A DNA stretch of 64,000 nt from positions 3,776,001-3,840,000 of the forward strand of contig OY762897.2 of assembly GCA_963666515.2 (NCBI GenBank), read 5' to 3'. Of the stretch, positions 18,359 through 28,244 are shown piece by piece. The DNA comes from Candidatus Binatia bacterium. Its GTDB lineage: Bacteria > Desulfobacterota > Binatia > UBA9968 > JAJDTQ01. The translations under genes were made by a program, and so were the position numbers. Numbering within the stretch: the stretch's first letter is position 1; the number at the start of each line of letters is the position of its first letter. The notes beneath the pieces were generated by a model, which was given only the letters and a program-made list of their open reading frames with translations, ran no database searches and was not told the origin of the DNA.

Positions 18359-18823
18359 TTACGGCATCGCCACCGGGTGCAGCCCGACACCCGTGTGCTC
18401 CAGGATGTCCGCGACGGTATCGAGCTTGTAGGGTTTCTCGTAGTAGATGTCGCCGATGCCGGTGTTCACCAGCACCTTGAGGCAGTGGATGCAGGGGGTG
18501 TGGGTGATGTAGATGGAGGCGTCCTTGATGCTGGCGCCGTTCTTGGCGGCTTGGGCGATGGCGTTGATCTCCGCGTGGATGGTGCGGAAGCAGTTCTGCT
18601 CGACCTCCCCGCCGGGGTTCCTGGACTCGTAGACCAGGCAGCCCACTTCCGTGCAATGGGGCATGCCCGCGGGCGAGCCGTTGTAGCCCGTGGCCAGGAT
18701 GCTCCGGTCCCGGACGATCACCGCGCCCACCTTGGCGCGGGTGCAGGTGGACCGTTCCGCCACCTGCCGGGTGATGGTCATGAAGTACTGGTCCCAGCTC
18801 AGCCGTTCGTCTTGAGTGCTCAC
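18359..18823 (-). CDS. dCMP deaminase (ComEB-like)
   Basis: SWDQYFM, RSTC, TGYNG, HAEINAI, PCIHC zinc motifs. Confidence 0.93.
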
Positions 18824-18905
18824 CGCGGTGACCTTTCGTTCAGCCCCGTCAGTATTCGAGGGGGCACTATACCATGCAGCCTCTTCGTATCGCGGCGCCC
18901 TGCGT

Positions 18906-19005
18906 CGTCATTCCGGCGAAAGCCGGAATCCAGGACGGGCGGGGCGGGGAATCACTCTCGTCTGCCCCTCCCCACCCCTGGATTCCGGCTTTCGCCGGAA
19001 TGACG
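18906..19005. repeat. Palindromic repeat family A, two-arm element (100 bp)
   Basis: CGTCATTCCGGCGAAAGCCGGAATCCAG...CTGGATTCCGGCTTTCGCCGGAATGACG. Confidence 0.92.
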
Positions 19006-19860
19006 ATTTCGGAGGTCATCGCCTATCTCGGACGACGTTTTGGCACCGCCTGGAAAGCGGGAATCCAGGGGAGGAGGGGGCGCAAGCAGCACCCGCGTCC
19101 CCGTTCCCGCGCCGAGGCCCGCCTGGGCGCTGCCGTTGCAGCGGGATATCTCCAGCAGTCCCCAGCTATTGACCAAGGCTAGGTAGTTGCCGGCGCCGGC
19201 CGAGGCGTAGTTGTCCGACAGGCCCCGGATGACGCTGTCGCCGACCCGCACCGAAACGCTCTCCGTGTCGAGCCGGCCCAGGTGCTCGCGGCGGATGTTG
19301 GTGGTCAGGTTGCCGAAGCCGTCGACATAGATCACCTGGCCGGCGATGCCGCCCCCGTCTCGTATCTCCGGGTCGGGAACATGCAGGCTCTCGAAGCTTT
19401 CCACGGTCTCGCCCAGCTTCTCCAGCCGAACACCCGCCGACAGGTGGGCGGCCACGGGTGCGAAGACGTCTCGGCCGTGGAACGTCGTGCTGGTGGGCTG
19501 GAGGTGATACTCGGGTTTGGAAAGGTGGATGATGCGGCGCAGGCGTTGCCGCCCGGCCGCGAGGCTCAGGAGCCCGTTGTCCGGGCCCACGTAGCAGGCC
19601 CGGTCGGTTTCGAGCAGGATGGGCCGCCGGTCGCCGCCGACGCCGGGATCCACCACCGCCACGTGGACCACGCCCTCCGGAAAGAAGTCCACGGCGGACG
19701 CCAGCGCCAGCGCGCCTCCGGTGACGTCCTGAGGGGCGACGCCGTGGGTCAGGTCGATGAGGGTGGCGCCAGGGTCGATGGCGGCCACCACCCCCTTCAT
19801 GATGCCGACGAAGGGGTCGCGGTAGCCGAAGTCCGTGGTCAGGGTGATGATTCTTGACAC
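18952..19860 (-). CDS. SAM hydrolase/SAM-dependent halogenase family (DUF62) protein; C-terminus runs into repeat DNA
   Basis: ITLTTDFG, VVDPGVG, GPDNG, TFHGRDVFAP, YVDGFGN, NSWGLLEI. Confidence 0.9.
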   Translation of the reverse strand: MSRIITLTTDFGYRDPFVGIMKGVVAAIDPGATLIDLTHGVAPQDVTGGALALASAVDFFPEGVVHVAVVDPGVGGDRRPILLETDRACYVGPDNGLLSLAAGRQRLRRIIHLSKPEYHLQPTSTTFHGRDVFAPVAAHLSAGVRLEKLGETVESFESLHVPDPEIRDGGGIAGQVIYVDGFGNLTTNIRREHLGRLDTESVSVRVGDSVIRGLSDNYASAGAGNYLALVNSWGLLEISRCNGSAQAGLGAGTGTRVLLAPPPPLDSRFPGGAKTSSEIGDDLRNRHSGESRNPGVGRGRRE

Positions 19861-19977: not shown

Positions 19978-20664
19978 ATGATCGAGCTCTACACCAGCGC
20001 CACCCCCAACGGCCAGAAGATCCACATCATGCTGGAGGAGACCGGCCTCCCTTACCGTCTTCACTGGGTCGATCTCAGGAAGGGCGAGCAGTTCGATCCG
20101 GAGTTCCTCAAGATCAGCCCCAACAACAAGATCCCCGTCATCTTCGACCGGGACGGCCCCGGAGGGGAGCCTATCTCGGTGTTCGAGTCCGGCGCCATCC
20201 TGGTCTACCTAGCCGAAAAGACCGGGAAGTTCCTGCCCACCGAAACCCGTGCCCGCACCCGTGTGCTGGAGTGGCTGATGTTCCAGGTGGGCGGCGTCGG
20301 TCCCATGCTCGGCCAGGCGCACCACTTCCGCGCCTACGCGCGCGAGAAGATCCCCTACGCCATCGAGCGCTACACCAGCGAGGGGGCGCGCATCTACCGG
20401 GTGCTGGACAAGCGGCTGTCCGAGAGCGAGTACCTGGCGGGAGACTACTCCATCGCCGACATGGCGGTGTTCCCGTGGATCCGTCTGCACGAGCGGCAGG
20501 GCCAGGACATGGCCGACCACCCCCATCTGAGCCGGTGGTTCAACACCATTGCCGCGCGGCCCGCAGTGGCCAGGGACATGGAGAAGACCCGGGACGTGGT
20601 GGGTGCCATCACCGACGAGATGTGGGACAATCTCTGGGGCAGGAAGCAGTTCGAGCGGCGCTGA
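19978..20664 (+). CDS. Glutathione S-transferase, YfcG/YghU-like
   Basis: TPNG, ISPNNKIP, FESGAIL, GPMLGQAHHF, YSIADMA. Confidence 0.92.
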   Translation: MIELYTSATPNGQKIHIMLEETGLPYRLHWVDLRKGEQFDPEFLKISPNNKIPVIFDRDGPGGEPISVFESGAILVYLAEKTGKFLPTETRARTRVLEWLMFQVGGVGPMLGQAHHFRAYAREKIPYAIERYTSEGARIYRVLDKRLSESEYLAGDYSIADMAVFPWIRLHERQGQDMADHPHLSRWFNTIAARPAVARDMEKTRDVVGAITDEMWDNLWGRKQFERR

Positions 20665-20678
20665 CCGGGGGCCGCGGC

Positions 20679-21116
20679 CTACGAGCTGCTGTCCATGGGG
20701 TAGCCTTTCTCGGTCCAGCCGGGAAGCCCCTCGTACAACACCCTCATGTTGCGGTGGCCCTGCTTGTGGAGAATCTCGTAAGCCAACCTGGACAGGTGGC
20801 GAGGGCACTGTCAATAGAGGACGACGAGACCTTCTTTCGGCACGAGGTCCTTGCCCCGGAAAAAGGCGCCCAAGGGTATGGAGAGGGCGCCCTTGATGTG
20901 CCCCGCGTCATAGCTGCGGCGCTGCCGGACGTCCACCAGGGTGATCGGCTTGCGGTCGAGGATGTGCTGGACCAGCTCTTCCACCCGGATATACCGGACC
21001 GCGATCTTGTCCGAGGTCTCTACTTTGGCGTACTCGGGGTATATCCCCGGGTCGCCCCAGGCAGGCGCCGCCGCCATCAACAGCAGCGCCGTCAGTCCAA
21101 CCGCAAGGCGTCGCAT
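20679..21116 (-). CDS. Exported rhodanese-domain selenoprotein (UxC motif), 145 aa with Sec read-through at 20811-20813
   Basis: Signal peptide; LVDVR, GHIKGALSIP, VVLY-[TGA]-QCPRHLSRLAYEILHKQGHRNMRVLYEGLPGWTEKGYPMDSSS*. The frame after the TGA completes the rhodanese fold and fills the gap to the convergent GST gene. Confidence 0.85.
20775..20803 (-). promoter_or_regulatory. Putative bacterial SECIS element
   Basis: mRNA GCCACCU-GUCC-AGGU(U)GGC hairpin starting 10 nt after the UGA; apical loop begins GU; bulged U. Confidence 0.7.
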
Positions 21117-22012
21117 CAGCCGCCCTCGCTTTCCGGGGTCTTGACGCCCGCGAACCTAGCGCGGTCCGCCAGCATCGCCGGCGTCAGCACGCCGGTGTGG
21201 CGCCGGCCGTTGATGATCCACGTGGGATAGGAACGGACGCCGGCCGCCAGACACTTGGACGCCACCGGTCCGCTGCGTCCCGCGGGACTGCATTCGACGT
21301 AGGGAATGCGGTGGGCGGACGTCCCGAACAGTTCCTTCTGGCTCTCGCAGGCCGGACACCAGAACGCCCCGTACATCTTGACGCCGGTCTCTTCCAGGTG
21401 GGTGGCCAGCCCCTTCATCCAGGGGTCCTCCTTGCCCGAGGCCCCCACGGAGACGCCCGAATAGAAGACCAGGTGCAGCGCCACCACCGCGACCCCGGCC
21501 GCCAGGAAGCTCGATCCCAGCCAGGGCTGCCACGCAAGCCGGCGGCTCACCTGCGGGATCTGGAACAGGGTGACGACGAAGATGGCCGCAAGAAGCCCGA
21601 GGGACGTCAGGCAGTACGGACAGGCCGCCTCCAGCCGGAACACCGAAATGGCCGTGAGATACACGCTGTAGGCGACGCCGAACAGCGAGACCGCGGCGGT
21701 CAGTTTCCAGCGCTGGCTACGGCGTTTGCCGAAGGCCGCGGCTGCAAGCACCGCGTAGATGAAGAAACCCCAGAGCGACGTGGGCAGGCCCAGCAGCACC
21801 GACCAGCGGCTGTGCAGCACGATGTCGCAGTCGGCTCCCGCCTCGCAAAAGGCCGCCTTCTCCCCCAACCACGCGGTGCCGGTCAGATACCCCGCCAGCG
21901 CCAGCCCCACCACCGCCAGAGCCAGAACCGGCCAGTTCGGACTCGCGGACCCGGCCGCCGCCGGCTGCTGCCGGGGTCCTCGCCCGCCTTTCTTCCTCGA
22001 TGCCTTGGCCAT
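21116..22012 (-). CDS. Vitamin K epoxide reductase (VKOR)-thioredoxin-like fusion (cyanobacterial/LTO1 type)
   Basis: CEAGADCDIVLHSRWS, CPYC in TM domain; MYGAFWCPAC, YVECSPAG, C...SYPTWIING. Confidence 0.93.
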   Translation of the reverse strand: MAKASRKKGGRGPRQQPAAAGSASPNWPVLALAVVGLALAGYLTGTAWLGEKAAFCEAGADCDIVLHSRWSVLLGLPTSLWGFFIYAVLAAAAFGKRRSQRWKLTAAVSLFGVAYSVYLTAISVFRLEAACPYCLTSLGLLAAIFVVTLFQIPQVSRRLAWQPWLGSSFLAAGVAVVALHLVFYSGVSVGASGKEDPWMKGLATHLEETGVKMYGAFWCPACESQKELFGTSAHRIPYVECSPAGRSGPVASKCLAAGVRSYPTWIINGRRHTGVLTPAMLADRARFAGVKTPESEGG

Positions 22013-22110: not shown

Positions 22111-22749
22111 CTACCCCGTTCCCGTCAGCAAGCTTCGGGCGTTCCGGCGCAGCCGTTCCAACGCACGCGGGTTGCGGCTTTCGTAGTAGCCCCGGATGAT
22201 GCCGTCGCGGTCCACCAGCACGAACCGGGTGCTGTGGAAGACTACGGGATCGTGCGTGTGGCCGTCCACCGGGGCGGCGCTCAGGCGGAACCCGTCCTGC
22301 ACGATGCGGCGGATCTCCCCCAACTCACCGGTGAGGAACAGCCAGCGCTCGGGGTCCGCGCCGTACCGTTCGGCGTATCGCGACAACAACGCGGGCGTGT
22401 CCGTGAGCGGATCGACGGAGATGGAGACGGACCGCAGGTCGCCGTAGCCCTTCAGGTCCGTCCGCAGCGCCGCCATGGCGCGGCTCTGGAGCGGGCAGGT
22501 GTCCCGGCACTGGGTGTAGATGAAGTCCGCGATCCAGACCCGGCCGCGCAGGTCGCCGGCGGACACGGGCCTGCCGCTTCGCTCCACCAGCGAGAAGTCC
22601 GGCGCCGGACCGTACCGCGCGAGCTGCTCCAGGACGGGCTGGCGCGGAGCCGCAGGGGGGGTACGGAGTTGTTGGATGACAAGGCTGACGAGGACGATGG
22701 ACAAGACCGTCCCGACGGTCACCTGGAGCATGAAACGCCGCTGTGTCAT
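22111..22749 (-). CDS. SCO1/SenC family copper chaperone
   Basis: APDFSLVERSG, FIYTQCRDTCP (CxxxC), SISVDP, VFHSTRFVLVD. Confidence 0.93.
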   Translation of the reverse strand: MTQRRFMLQVTVGTVLSIVLVSLVIQQLRTPPAAPRQPVLEQLARYGPAPDFSLVERSGRPVSAGDLRGRVWIADFIYTQCRDTCPLQSRAMAALRTDLKGYGDLRSVSISVDPLTDTPALLSRYAERYGADPERWLFLTGELGEIRRIVQDGFRLSAAPVDGHTHDPVVFHSTRFVLVDRDGIIRGYYESRNPRALERLRRNARSLLTGTG

Positions 22750-22867: not shown

Positions 22868-23683
22868 CTAGCGGTTCCGCCGCAGCCACCGGCGGCCACC
22901 AACCAGGAAGAAGACCAGCGTGAAGGTGAGGACGATCATGGCGCCGGAGGAGATGTCGATGAAGTAGCTGAGGTACATGCCGGCCGCCGCGCACACGGCG
23001 CCGATGATCGGGGTGATGACCAGCAGGGTCTGGAACCGTTGTGTCAGGTAGCGGCCTATGACCGGAGGGATGACCACGGCGGCGGACACGAGGGTGACGC
23101 CGAGGATGCGGGTGGACGCCACGATGGTGACCGCCAGCACCAGGATGAAGATCAGCTCGGTACGGCCGGTGGAGATGCCGTACACCGGCGCCACCTCCGG
23201 GTCGAAGGTGGAGAACAGGAGCTGGCGGCGGATGACGATCATGACGAGTACGACGGCGGCGGCGGTGGCCGCGATGACCCGGAGATCCACCGGCGTGATG
23301 CCCAGCAGGTTGCCGAAGAGCGCGGCCTCGAAGTCCAGCGTGAACTTCCGGTAGGTGGAGACCACCGCCACGCCCAGGGCGAAGCTCGCGGTCGTCACCA
23401 CGCCGATGGCGGCGTCGGCGCCCACCAGCCGGCGGTGGCTGATGAGGTGGATCAGCACCGCGCTCACCAGCGCCCACACGCCGGCGCCGATGAAGAAGTG
23501 GACGCCGACGATGGTGCTCAGCACCGCCCCGCCGAAGAGGGCGTGGGCCAGCCCGTGGCCGATATAGCTCATGCGCCGGAGCACCACGTAGACGCCGACG
23601 TAGCCGCACACCGCGCCGACGATGACCGAGGCGATCATGCCGTTGCGGAAGAACTCGTAGGCGAAGGGTTCAAGCGGACCCAT
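22868..23683 (-). CDS. Mn/Zn/Fe ABC transporter permease (ABC-3 family)
   Basis: VVLRRMSYIGHGLAH, DAAIG, LFGNLLGI, TFDPEVA, DISSGAMIVL. Confidence 0.92.
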   Translation of the reverse strand: MGPLEPFAYEFFRNGMIASVIVGAVCGYVGVYVVLRRMSYIGHGLAHALFGGAVLSTIVGVHFFIGAGVWALVSAVLIHLISHRRLVGADAAIGVVTTASFALGVAVVSTYRKFTLDFEAALFGNLLGITPVDLRVIAATAAAVVLVMIVIRRQLLFSTFDPEVAPVYGISTGRTELIFILVLAVTIVASTRILGVTLVSAAVVIPPVIGRYLTQRFQTLLVITPIIGAVCAAAGMYLSYFIDISSGAMIVLTFTLVFFLVGGRRWLRRNR

Positions 23684-23690
23684 GGAGGCG

Positions 23691-24563
23691 TCATCCGCCG
23701 TTGGGCGAGTGCGGCCGTTCGCCCACCATGATCATGTCGCCGTGCTGGAAGACCACCATCTCCCCCTTGTAGGTCTCTCCCAGCACTTCGGTGGTGAACA
23801 CCTGCTGGGGGTCGCCTTCGGCGATCACGCGCCGGTTCAGGCACACCACCCACGGCAGGTGCGCGGCCACCCAGTTGAGGTCGTGGCTGGTGATGAGGAT
23901 GGCGACGCCCGAGTGGTTGATCTCGTGAAGGAAATGGACCACCTCGTCGCGGGAGCGGATGTCGAGCCCGGAGGTGGGCTCGTCGAGCAGGATCAGCTCC
24001 GGCTCTCCCAGCAGCGCCCGGGCGATGAACGCGGCCTGCTGCTGTCCTCCGGACAGCTCCCGGATCTGGCGGTCCCGCAGCTCATGCAGGTTGAGCCGCT
24101 CCATGATCTCGTGGGCGCGGTCGCGGTCCTCCGGAGCGGTGCGCCGGAACCACCGGTGGCGCCGGGACAGGCCCAGCAGCACCACCTCCTCCACGGTGAT
24201 GGGAAAGCTCAGGTCGATCTGCTCAAGCTGCGGCACGTAGCCCACGGACCCGAGAGACCCGCCGCCAGCCGGCGCACCGTGGACGGTCACCCGCCCTTCC
24301 CTGGGCCGGATGTGCCCCAGGATGGTGCGCAGCAGCGTGGTCTTCCCCCCGCCGTTGGGTCCCACCACCGCCAAGAACTGCGCCGGCCAGAGCTTCAGGT
24401 TGACCCCGGCGATGCCCAGGGTCTGCCGGTAGCCGCTGGACACGTCCGTCAGCTCCACGATGGGCCGCCCCTGCTCGCTCCACTCCCGCCCGCCCGCATG
24501 CGGGTGCCCGTGCAGCCTGCCGTGGACGTGGTGGACCCGGTCGGTGTGCTTCTCGGAGGTCAC
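23691..24563 (-). CDS. Mn/Zn ABC transporter ATP-binding protein with His-rich N-terminus
   Basis: GPNGGGKTT, GYVPQ, LSGGQ, LLDEPTSGLD, SHDL; start uncertain. Confidence 0.92.
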   Translation of the reverse strand: MTSEKHTDRVHHVHGRLHGHPHAGGREWSEQGRPIVELTDVSSGYRQTLGIAGVNLKLWPAQFLAVVGPNGGGKTTLLRTILGHIRPREGRVTVHGAPAGGGSLGSVGYVPQLEQIDLSFPITVEEVVLLGLSRRHRWFRRTAPEDRDRAHEIMERLNLHELRDRQIRELSGGQQQAAFIARALLGEPELILLDEPTSGLDIRSRDEVVHFLHEINHSGVAILITSHDLNWVAAHLPWVVCLNRRVIAEGDPQQVFTTEVLGETYKGEMVVFQHGDMIMVGERPHSPNGG

Positions 24564-27053: not shown

Positions 27054-28244
27054 CTACCGATAGCGCGCGTGATGGCCCGCCACCGGGGCCGGGTCCACGG
27101 CCTTCAGCGCGTCGGCCGAGCCGCCCAGCGCGGTCACGATGGTGCGGATGTTTTCGAGCATCATGCCGGTGTACGAGTGGATCGGGTCGCCGGACTCCCC
27201 GGGGAGGTCGTCGTCCCGCAGCTTGTCGATGAATACCGTCCCGGCTTCACGGGCGATCTGCGCGAGCACAGGGCTGGGAAACAACTCGGAGCCGAACACC
27301 GCCGGCACCCGCGCGCGGCGCAACTGGTCGATGAGCCGCGCCACCTCTCTGGGGCTCGGCTCGGAGAAGCTGGAGGGTTGCACGGCACCGATGACGGAGA
27401 AGCCGTAACGCTTGGCGAAGTAGGGCCACGAGTCGTGATAGGTGAGGAGGCGCCGGTTCTCCGGCGGCACCGTGGCCACGGCCGCGGCAATGGCCCTGTC
27501 CAGCGCTCCGAGCTGCTTCAGGTAGCGCTCCGTGTTGTCCCCGTACGCGGCCCGGCCCTCGGGGTCCGCCGCGGCCAGGGCATCACGCACCAGGCGGGCG
27601 TAGTTCATCACGAGCACCGGGTCGGGCCACAGGTGCGGGTTGGGGTGCCCCCGGTCCCTGGGGAAGCTGAAGTCGAAGACGTAGTCCGCTTCGCTGAGGG
27701 TGCGGTCGGCGAGCAGTAGAATCGGCGTCTCCGGCCGCTTGTTGGCGCGCGCCAGCTTCAGCGTCGGGATCTCCAGGTAGAGGCCGTTCATGATGATGAG
27801 GTCGGCCCGCGCCATGGTTCTGGCGTCCGACGGGACCGGCCGGAAGGTGTGGGAGTTCACCCCTTCCGGCACCATGCCCGTGACCCGCGCCCGGTCCCCG
27901 GCCACGTTCTCCACCATGCTGGTGATCGGCGCCACGGTGGTGACCACGCGTGGGGAGGCGGCTTGGAGTCGGCCGGGAAGCGCCAGCATCATCGCGAGCA
28001 GCAACGCCAGGACCACGCCGGTCTCCGCGATCCCGACGTACCGGCCGGTCTTTCCCGCGCCACGGCTCGGCTTCCCCGACACTGTGCGTCCGTCATTCCG
28101 GCGAAAGCCGGAATCCAGAGGGGGAGGAGGCGGAGCATTCGCAACCCCGGCCCCCCTCTGGATTCCGGCTTTCGCCGGAATGACGGACACGGACATCGGC
28201 GCACGGGTTGTGTGGCAGGGACGGTTTTGTGGCCTGAGTATCAT
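27054..28244 (-). CDS. Mn/Zn ABC transporter substrate-binding protein (TroA/ZnuA cluster)
   Basis: GVNSHTF, NPHLWPDP, TYHDSWPYF, EPSPRE, LRDDDLP; start ambiguous (ATG 28244 includes an in-frame repeat; alternative GTG 28082). Confidence 0.9.
   Translation of the reverse strand: MILRPQNRPCHTTRAPMSVSVIPAKAGIQRGAGVANAPPPPPLDSGFRRNDGRTVSGKPSRGAGKTGRYVGIAETGVVLALLLAMMLALPGRLQAASPRVVTTVAPITSMVENVAGDRARVTGMVPEGVNSHTFRPVPSDARTMARADLIIMNGLYLEIPTLKLARANKRPETPILLLADRTLSEADYVFDFSFPRDRGHPNPHLWPDPVLVMNYARLVRDALAAADPEGRAAYGDNTERYLKQLGALDRAIAAAVATVPPENRRLLTYHDSWPYFAKRYGFSVIGAVQPSSFSEPSPREVARLIDQLRRARVPAVFGSELFPSPVLAQIAREAGTVFIDKLRDDDLPGESGDPIHSYTGMMLENIRTIVTALGGSADALKAVDPAPVAGHHARYR
28091..28185. repeat. 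Palindromic repeat family A, two-arm element, in frame with the SBP N-terminus
   Basis: Translates as VIPAKAGIQ...LDSGFRRND. Confidence 0.92.

Follow-up and report, generated by a model that had tools for sequence, protein, structure and literature searches.

We identify in the DNA of a Candidatus Binatia bacterium a gene whose product, as sequence comparison strongly supports, is a selenoprotein, predicted to be exported, with a rhodanese fold and a U-x-C active site (U, selenocysteine [Sec]), characteristic of Candidatus Binatia. The gene lies at positions 21116 to 20679 on the minus strand of a 64,000-nucleotide (nt) stretch, here called the window (contig OY762897.2 of assembly GCA_963666515.2, positions 3,776,001 to 3,840,000). 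It comprises 145 codons and a TAG stop codon but is annotated, and can be called, only as a 101-codon open reading frame (ORF) at 20811 to 21116. Codon 102, at 20813 to 20811, is a TGA, and the sequence comparisons below make it very probable, close to certain, that this codon is read as Sec.

The 101-codon ORF starts with an ATG at 21116 and ends in EGLVVLY, immediately before the TGA. Past the TGA, the frame is open for 43 further codons, QCPRHLSRLAYEILHKQGHRNMRVLYEGLPGWTEKGYPMDSSS, up to the TAG at 20681 to 20679; 14 nt lie between it and the stop codon of the convergent gene for a glutathione S-transferase (GST). An earlier sequence-based note on this DNA, here called the original prediction, had described the ORF halting after VVLY, the 43-residue continuation with a C-terminal L.xGxxxW..xGYP motif, and the 14-bp distance to the GST stop, and all three descriptions were accurate. 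The active-site loop of the read-through product is VVLY-U-Q-C-P-R-H, in which U102 is the first residue past the central beta-strand and Cys104 (codon at 20805 to 20807) is, in the ortholog alignment, the invariant partner in a U-x-C-P-x-H loop. The Pfam model PF00581 (Rhodanese) matches residues 46 to 136 of the read-through product (55.4 bits against a cutoff of 22.2; E value, 9e-15), a homology domain encoded at 20709 to 20981 that was also recovered with Foldseek. Because this match straddles the TGA, a 101-residue product would be without the active-site loop.

The N terminus, MRRLAVGLTALLLMAAAPAWG (residues 1 to 21; 21054 to 21116) followed by DP, resembles a signal peptide for the Sec-type secretory pathway, as judged from the sequence rather than with a predictor, and the predicted cleavage site precedes a conserved DP..YP.[YF]A motif. 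A hydrophobic leader and then a small-x-small site stand ahead of the conserved DP..YP motif in all 33 orthologs described below, and an AlphaFold2 (AF2) model places a helix across residues 2 to 15, inside the leader. The signal peptide proposed in the original prediction fits this pattern, and from the leader alone we infer that the protein is exported to the periplasm. Although the R2R3 pair could point to twin-arginine export, we rejected this route: the orthologs do not conserve the two arginines.

When 61 genomes, the window's own and those of 60 relatives, were searched in six frames, 33 yielded a full-length ortholog (E values, 8.5e-96 to 1.2e-26), and every ortholog has a single in-frame TGA. 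The 33 carriers are the window's genome, 16 of the 27 others of its genus, and 16 genomes from two more families of the order; the remaining 28 genomes gave weaker matches to rhodanese paralogs only. Identity to the window's protein ranges from 37 to 84%, and the TGA column is identical in every ortholog. The shared motif is (V/L/I/A)(L/F)Y-U-[A/Q/E]-C-P-[R/H]-H-[L/M]-[A/S]-[S/R]-L-A-[Y/F], with Y101, U102, C104, P105, and H107 invariant. Over codons +1 to +40 after the TGA, the ratio of nonsynonymous to synonymous substitution (dN/dS) was 0.21 within the genus (136 pairs; 40 gapless codons), 0.13 among the other 16 orthologs (120 pairs), and 0.18 between the window and the others (16 pairs), and dS exceeded 1 between groups. 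The combination of low dN/dS with saturated synonymous change indicates that the tail is translated in the same frame. Together with the Sec machinery described below, the conserved TGA and this coding constraint support the proposal of the original prediction that the gene encodes a UxC selenoprotein.

These results bear on the possibility that the TGA is a real stop, the outcome of a nonsense mutation or a sequencing error, so that the gene would yield a 101-residue fragment and the frame beyond the TGA would be in decay or without meaning. Public gene calls fit that possibility. In a word-indexed search of public proteins, all 40 matches were 87 to 115 residues long and covered at most 70% of the query; public gene calls therefore end at the TGA. 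The possibility is nonetheless hardly credible, given the identical TGA in 33 of 33 orthologs and in 50 of the best 80 named loci (see below), the post-TGA dN/dS of 0.13 to 0.21 with synonymous change at saturation, and the lack, in a truncated product, of the active-site loop and of two structural elements of the domain. The original prediction had named a sequencing error as one way in which it might be wrong, but many independent assemblies carry the TGA, which excludes such an error. Because all 40 retrieved records end at the TGA, public listings of a whole conserved protein family from an uncultured lineage omit its active site.

Assembled contigs from three studies span 20811 to 20813 with none of their listed differences from the window there, a weak confirmation because 19 differences are unlisted. 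The runs that best cover the window could themselves be the source of the window. Among the listed runs with larger shares, two bear the label sponge metagenome, and no claim about habitat is drawn from the small shares. A single metatranscriptome contig, 92% alike and at depth 3, extends over 20949 to 21148 only, which is upstream of the UGA; it is uninformative about read-through, and carry-over of DNA is possible.

The genome of the window encodes a complete Sec system. The tRNA-Sec scored 73.1 bits against a cutoff of 47 and was called SeC, anticodon tca, by ARAGORN, and the scores for selA, selB, and selD were 586.9 bits (cutoff, 267.9), 370.9 bits (cutoff, 242.25), and 381.4 bits (cutoff, 125), respectively. 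Thus, all four genes that the original prediction had singled out for a search (selA, selB, selC, and selD) are present, each above its curated cutoff. The selA, selB, and selD genes are clustered on one strand outside the window (G000:C1:4043412-4047708; L009, L017, and L018). The selD gene has an in-frame TGA of its own, located near the N terminus (KAAG-U-AAKLGP). Among the 61 genomes, 58 have selA; in the carriers the count is 32 of 33, and the one without it (G054) is an assembly of 210 contigs that is rated 96% complete. The neighboring genes for the GST and for a VKOR homolog both terminate in TGA, and TGA is therefore not reassigned genome-wide.

The original prediction expected Cys or TGA at column 102 of homologs, and this is the pattern found: beyond the TGA of all 33 orthologs, a scan of named contigs confirmed 177 stretches, and in the 80 best loci kept from these the codon at column 102 was TGA in 50, TGC in 29, and GGA in 1. 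The 50 TGA loci are mostly labeled as Candidatus Binatia or "Deltaproteobacteria" metagenome-assembled genomes (MAGs); a few bear other labels, perhaps through binning noise. The 29 TGC loci, with the loop YCACPHHLS, come from Methylomirabilota/Rokubacteria, Kofleriaceae and other Myxococcota, WOR-3, and Eisenbacteria. An exhaustive HMMER search additionally provided single-domain Cys forms (P0105, P0111, P0123, P0134, and P0171). A quick tree from 106 columns, in which many forks are unresolved, places the 59 Sec rows on one side; two long-branch Cys rows from Methylomirabilota/Rokubacteria are nested among them with unstarred support, and no conclusion is drawn about the direction of change between Cys and Sec.

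Three kinds of locus from this comparison merit separate mention. The GGA locus, from a Candidatus Binatia MAG (L082:3001-3417), lies beside a VKOR gene and has both active-site residues replaced (VVFY-G-N-R-P-RHLASSAY), as does P0064, which is of the same type; judged by these replacements, the L082 copy is presumably catalytically dead or repurposed. In all three loci examined from Kofleriaceae and an Eisenbacteria MAG (L108:2281-3438, L128:1834-3360, and L114:1993-3342), the Cys-form loop YCACPHHLSG belongs to the C-terminal domain of a fusion of dihaem cytochrome c and rhodanese. In a Rokubacteria MAG (L107:3471-3947), a gene for a Fur-family regulator is directly downstream of the Cys-form homolog.

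The original prediction included a candidate selenocysteine insertion sequence (SECIS), namely a hairpin that has a GU-led loop and a bulged U and begins 10 nt past the UGA. RNAfold recovers this hairpin at 20782 to 20800 on the minus strand (GCCACCU, a GUCC loop, and AGG(U)UGGC; 7-bp stem; -7.3 kcal/mol alone). This part of the prediction holds for the window and a small clade around it; most relatives have instead a 5-bp hairpin that begins 7 nt further on. Among 113 fetched sequences with 58 distinct TGA-bearing segments, a hairpin lies 3' of the UGA in all 58. The common type, found in 54, pairs GGCCA with UGGC(C/U) at +20 to +32 from the U of the UGA, around a loop that is GUU or GUC, and GGU once; its closing pair is G-U instead of G-C in 10 cases, and the sole compensatory change, from G-C to C-G, is in L101. 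The other four segments, those of the window and three of its clade, have the remodeled type. In that clade, a change from Ala-Ser to Ser-Arg at codons 109 and 110 (LSRLA) breaks the common hairpin and makes the 7-bp bulged one, 7 nt nearer the UGA, and a relative with LARLA (L036) is able to form either. Read this way, the putative SECIS is one that changed register inside one genus, a small natural case of a recoding signal within a coding sequence shifting register while the UGA is kept. A proposed lower stem (columns 5 to 13 with 40 to 48) paired in 86.5% of cells and was dropped because it fails in the window's genus.

Codon usage in the 33 orthologs also follows the stem. Every one of the 27 Ala+7 codons is GCC and every one of the 26 Ser+8 codons is AGT, while the two Leu codons of the hairpin differ at the first base alone and Ala+10 varies only between C and U, both of which pair with G. 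At the other positions of this stretch with at least four-fold degeneracy, three or four different codons are in use for the most part. Only one Cys-form locus also encodes LASLA; it does so as CTC GCG AGC CTC GCC, without the GGCCA/UGGCC hairpin (RNAfold gives no more than a weaker 4-bp stem, -3.4 kcal/mol), and this hairpin was not found in the other Cys forms compared. The UGA of selD in the window's genome is followed, at a distance of 33 nt, by a stem of 9 bp capped by a GUC triloop, and the C-x-U rhodanese genes of related genomes, discussed below, have 5-bp G/C stems starting 16 nt past the UGA with GU within the loop. These comparisons favor the hairpin within the coding sequence as a candidate SECIS that would direct decoding of the UGA by SelB and tRNA-Sec.

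Some results weigh against this identification. The 71 nt that follow the UGA in the window fold no better than shuffled sequence (z = +0.34; 123 of 200 shuffles fold equally well), and support for the hairpin therefore comes only from relatives. In the covariation analysis, 98.6% of cells pair, but the score of 0.076 against 0.074 for shuffled alignments was matched by 104 of 500 shuffles and is not significant, a test that is uninformative because the stem columns are almost invariant. The rank test of the 5 hairpin columns against 23 others (p = 0.0034) is overstated, since the sequences are kin.

The nonsignificant covariation leaves some room for near-cognate decoding, in which one of the standard residues Trp, Cys, Gly, or Arg would be inserted at the UGA and the hairpin would be a stimulator of read-through, not a SECIS. 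We consider this very improbable. The Sec system is complete and nearly universal in carriers, other phyla have Cys (TGC) at the homologous position, the neighboring genes end in TGA, and the loop type and spacing of the hairpin match those of the SECIS candidates of selD and of the lineage's other TGA-containing rhodaneses.

The predicted fold of the read-through product is that of a rhodanese. AF2 was run on the 33-sequence alignment; the best of five models (mean pLDDT, 83.1; pTM, 0.71) has a strand at residues 97 to 101, a loop at 102 to 106, and a helix at 107 to 118. The top Foldseek matches are all rhodanese domains (such as 3gk5, 3iwh, and 3hix), with target-normalized TM scores of up to 0.88 and root mean square deviations of 1.6 to 2.0 Å. 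A six-residue cradle is typical of rhodaneses. In the model, U102 is the first loop residue, C104 is at loop position 3, and the helix starts from H107, which yields a cradle of this kind. The model suggests that U102 likely occupies the canonical nucleophile position, and the alignments with 3tp9, 6mxv, and 6pfz agree. The placement of the TGA at the catalytic Cys in the original prediction stands in the AF2 model and in most HMMER alignments, but not in the alignment with 3r2u, which puts C104 there.

The genes around the rhodanese gene suggest, by their conserved order, periplasmic redox work. Directly upstream, at 21116 to 22012 on the minus strand, is a gene for a VKOR homolog, a DsbB-like quinone reductase (PF07884; E value, 8e-25), with a C-terminal thioredoxin-like CxxC domain and invariant Cys pairs; its TGA stop overlaps the ATG of the rhodanese gene (TGATG). 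Next on the same strand, at 22111 to 22749, is a gene for a homolog of the copper chaperone SCO1/SenC with a CxxxC motif (PF02630; E value, 1e-26). A VKOR homolog is directly upstream in 29 of the 33 orthologous loci and SCO1 is within the fetched flanks in 25 of the 33, and the order of the SCO1, VKOR, and rhodanese genes is kept down to 37% identity. This linkage to a VKOR-thioredoxin quinone reductase and SCO1 provides concrete partners for biochemistry.

Bacterial VKOR-thioredoxin fusions, which are functional equivalents of DsbB/DsbA, resemble the upstream gene in having a VKOR domain, Cys pairs in a loop and in the membrane, and a C-terminal CxxC thioredoxin-like domain, although this is a likeness of the neighbor and not of the rhodanese. 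A structure reportedly exists for the fusion from Synechococcus. VKOR is described as the functional equivalent of DsbB in the accessible part of PMC5403849, and no mention of a rhodanese selenoprotein partner dedicated to VKOR was found in that part.

Our preferred role for the protein is that of a selenol/thiol redox couple working with its VKOR-thioredoxin and SCO1 neighbors, an assignment inferred from sequence and context that we hold tentatively, at a little less than an even chance. In this proposal, SelB and tRNA-Sec would decode UGA 102 as Sec, directed by the hairpin with the GU-led loop just downstream. The selenolate of U102 would be the nucleophile and C104 the resolving partner, the pair cycling between selenol/thiol and selenenylsulfide, possibly via an adduct of sulfur or substrate bound to selenium. 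The VKOR-thioredoxin quinone reductase, encoded directly upstream and co-translated, would receive the electrons, and the likely clients would be in the SCO1 copper chaperone pathway encoded adjacent to it. The couple is favored over a lone persulfide carrier because Sec at either or both positions of a pair typifies two-residue redox motifs. The best explanation of the gene, which we consider highly probable, is an exported, single-domain Sec rhodanese of 145 residues; U102 and C104 would form its redox couple alongside VKOR-thioredoxin and SCO1.

The VKOR adjacency in Binatia and the fusion to dihaem cytochrome c among the Cys forms place this domain type repeatedly beside an electron acceptor. 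A bolder version of the proposal, which we regard as speculative and rather unlikely in its full extent, is that the U-x-C rhodanese is the selenium working end of a dedicated periplasmic module of three genes, those for SCO1, VKOR-thioredoxin, and Sec rhodanese. That module would take over, from the thioredoxins of the TlpA/DsbA type that act elsewhere, the task of setting the copper chaperone's redox or metal state for the assembly of cytochrome oxidase. The C-x-C-P-H-H domain would, in general, be an electron-donating catalytic module that evolution has connected in Binatia to quinone through VKOR and in Myxococcota to haem c through fusion to dihaem cytochrome c.

The redox proposal has to be set against a number of contrary points. 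The four AF2 models other than the best were poor (pLDDT, 46 to 54), leaving one confident model of five, and in the 3r2u alignment the catalytic Cys matches C104 rather than U102. In one genus, two loci have SCO1 as the immediate upstream neighbor and no VKOR. Neither gene is nearby in two of the 33 orthologous loci, four TGA loci are counted as having neither, and neither VKOR nor SCO1 was found near any of the 29 Cys-form loci. VKOR systems oxidize, whereas SCO1 needs reduced Cys for copper, which makes the direction of electron flow ambiguous.

The four TGA loci without VKOR and SCO1 nearby fit a classical sulfur or selenium transferase, in which thiosulfate or a comparable donor would load U102 with a persulfide- or perselenide-like adduct, C104 would have no redox role, and VKOR and SCO1 would be functionally unrelated. 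The rhodanese fold, the modeled position of U102 at the canonical catalytic site, and the identity of the nearest solved relatives, which are thiosulfate sulfurtransferases and persulfide-carrying rhodaneses, point in the same direction. Against a transferase of this kind stand the invariance of C104, P105, and H107 in 33 of 33 orthologs and a gene order retained down to 37% identity. The canonical CRxGx[R/T] loop is also absent, with the GlpE and PspE models reaching only 23 bits against a cutoff of 102, and sister families with Sec at the other Cys, or at both (the latter as described in the accessible part of PMC1976440), better fit a redox pair. We therefore consider the transferase role somewhat unlikely, although a serious contender.

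Handling of metal is another possibility. The loop, of the type U-x-C-P-H-H, would bind Cu(I) or another soft metal and exchange it with SCO1, and a metal ABC importer encoded nearby would belong to the same theme. The importer genes, noted for context only, are those for an ABC-3 permease (22868 to 23683) and an ATPase (23691 to 24563) on the minus strand, with a gene for a ZnuA-like binding protein beyond them at 27054 to 28244. The loop could supply Sec, Cys, and one or two His residues as ligands, SCO1/SenC is in the operon, and the ZnuA, ABC-3, and ABC ATPase genes lie upstream; these genes and the Fur-family regulator beside the Cys-form locus L107 hint at a metal connection. In the window's protein and the 16 other sequences of its genus, however, Arg stands in place of the first His, and the profile searches of Pfam and NCBIfam matched no metal-binding family. 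We regard metal handling as quite improbable.

On the other side of the rhodanese gene, the convergent GST gene occupies 19978 to 20664 on the plus strand, its TGA stop facing the TAG of the rhodanese gene. Just past it, at 18952 to 19860 on the minus strand, is a gene of the SAM hydroxide adenosyltransferase family (PF01887 and PF20257). At about 18816 to 19186, overlapping ORFs on both strands contain repeated strings (IPAKAGIQ and IPAFAGMT, among others), and this segment looks like a short palindromic intergenic repeat element rather than genes.

A full-text literature search for Binatia or Binatota together with selenocysteine or selenoprotein found no paper. The Binatia lineage appears, from its sequences, to be rich in rhodanese selenoproteins. 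Related genomes (G086, G093, G079, and G084) encode rhodanese domains of the C-x-U type with TGA (YCSUPNEATSAR and FCAUPDEATSAR) fused to membrane proteins; L136 and L139 have a DedA-like N terminus, and L138 and L140 encode a large membrane protein, at 76 to 96 bits against the cutoff of 115 for NF041203, the family discussed next. A true member of NF041203 was found in 1 of 101 genomes searched (G040, locus L135; 151.5 bits), a total that includes three unpublished genomes from which no result given here derives, and its gene has a similar G/C-rich hairpin about 17 nt past the UGA. This member and three relatives below the cutoff (L136, L138, and L139) read Y-C-x-U-P-[D/N]-E (YCAUPDE and YCSUPNE).

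Five forms of rhodanese selenoprotein are given in the accessible part of a 2026 review (PMC13188914): UxxS, UxxG, CxU (NF041203), a further UxxG, and UxxxxU (TsoB). The U-x-C motif of the window's protein is absent from these five. The first, second, and fourth forms are set apart by their motif descriptions in that source, since Pro is found three residues after U in 33 of 33 orthologs here. The third form, NF041203 (rhodanese_LYCAU), is the best NCBIfam match, at 47.6 bits against the cutoff of 115, and shares with the window's protein a small rhodanese domain and a loop of the (L/F)Y-C-x-C-P type in which one Cys position is Sec. In NF041203, Sec is at the second Cys (Y-C-x-U-P), whereas in the window's protein it is at the first (Y-U-x-C-P). 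The loop continues as [R/H]-H-L-A-S in the window's family and as [D/N]-E-x-T-S in NF041203, the spacing to the next G-[YF] is one residue shorter in the window's family, and the gene context of SCO1 and VKOR also distinguishes the two.

TsoB (NF045694) resembles the present system in tying a Sec-containing rhodanese domain to a membrane thiol-redox module. It is, however, a fusion to a DsbD-like, reducing module and has two Sec residues, whereas the window's protein is a separate 145-residue domain with one Sec that is encoded beside VKOR, which is DsbB-like and oxidizing; the score against the TsoB model was 31.4 bits (cutoff, 805). PspE and GlpE of Escherichia coli are also single rhodanese domains, and PspE is periplasmic too, but they have a single Cys and no Sec and are without the C-x-C-P-H-H loop, and their models scored 23.4 and 23.0 bits, respectively. 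Chng et al. in 2012 are said to have reported that overexpression of PspE restores disulfide formation without DsbA. Because all of these family scores are below their cutoffs, the window's protein lies outside NF041203, TsoB, and GlpE/PspE.

The UxU variant of a rhodanese-related sulfurtransferase selenoprotein, from an Olavius symbiont metagenome, also has Sec at the first position of the pair; as described in the accessible part of PMC1976440, both positions are Sec there, whereas the second is Cys in 33 of 33 orthologs here. The window's protein differs, by its predicted sequence, from the listed selenium rhodaneses in which active-site position carries selenium: selenium would be at the first position of the C-x-C pair, which is the canonical catalytic site according to the model, and the nearest known form has it at the second. 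Together with the reported UxU form, this arrangement argues for a redox couple and not for a lone persulfide carrier.

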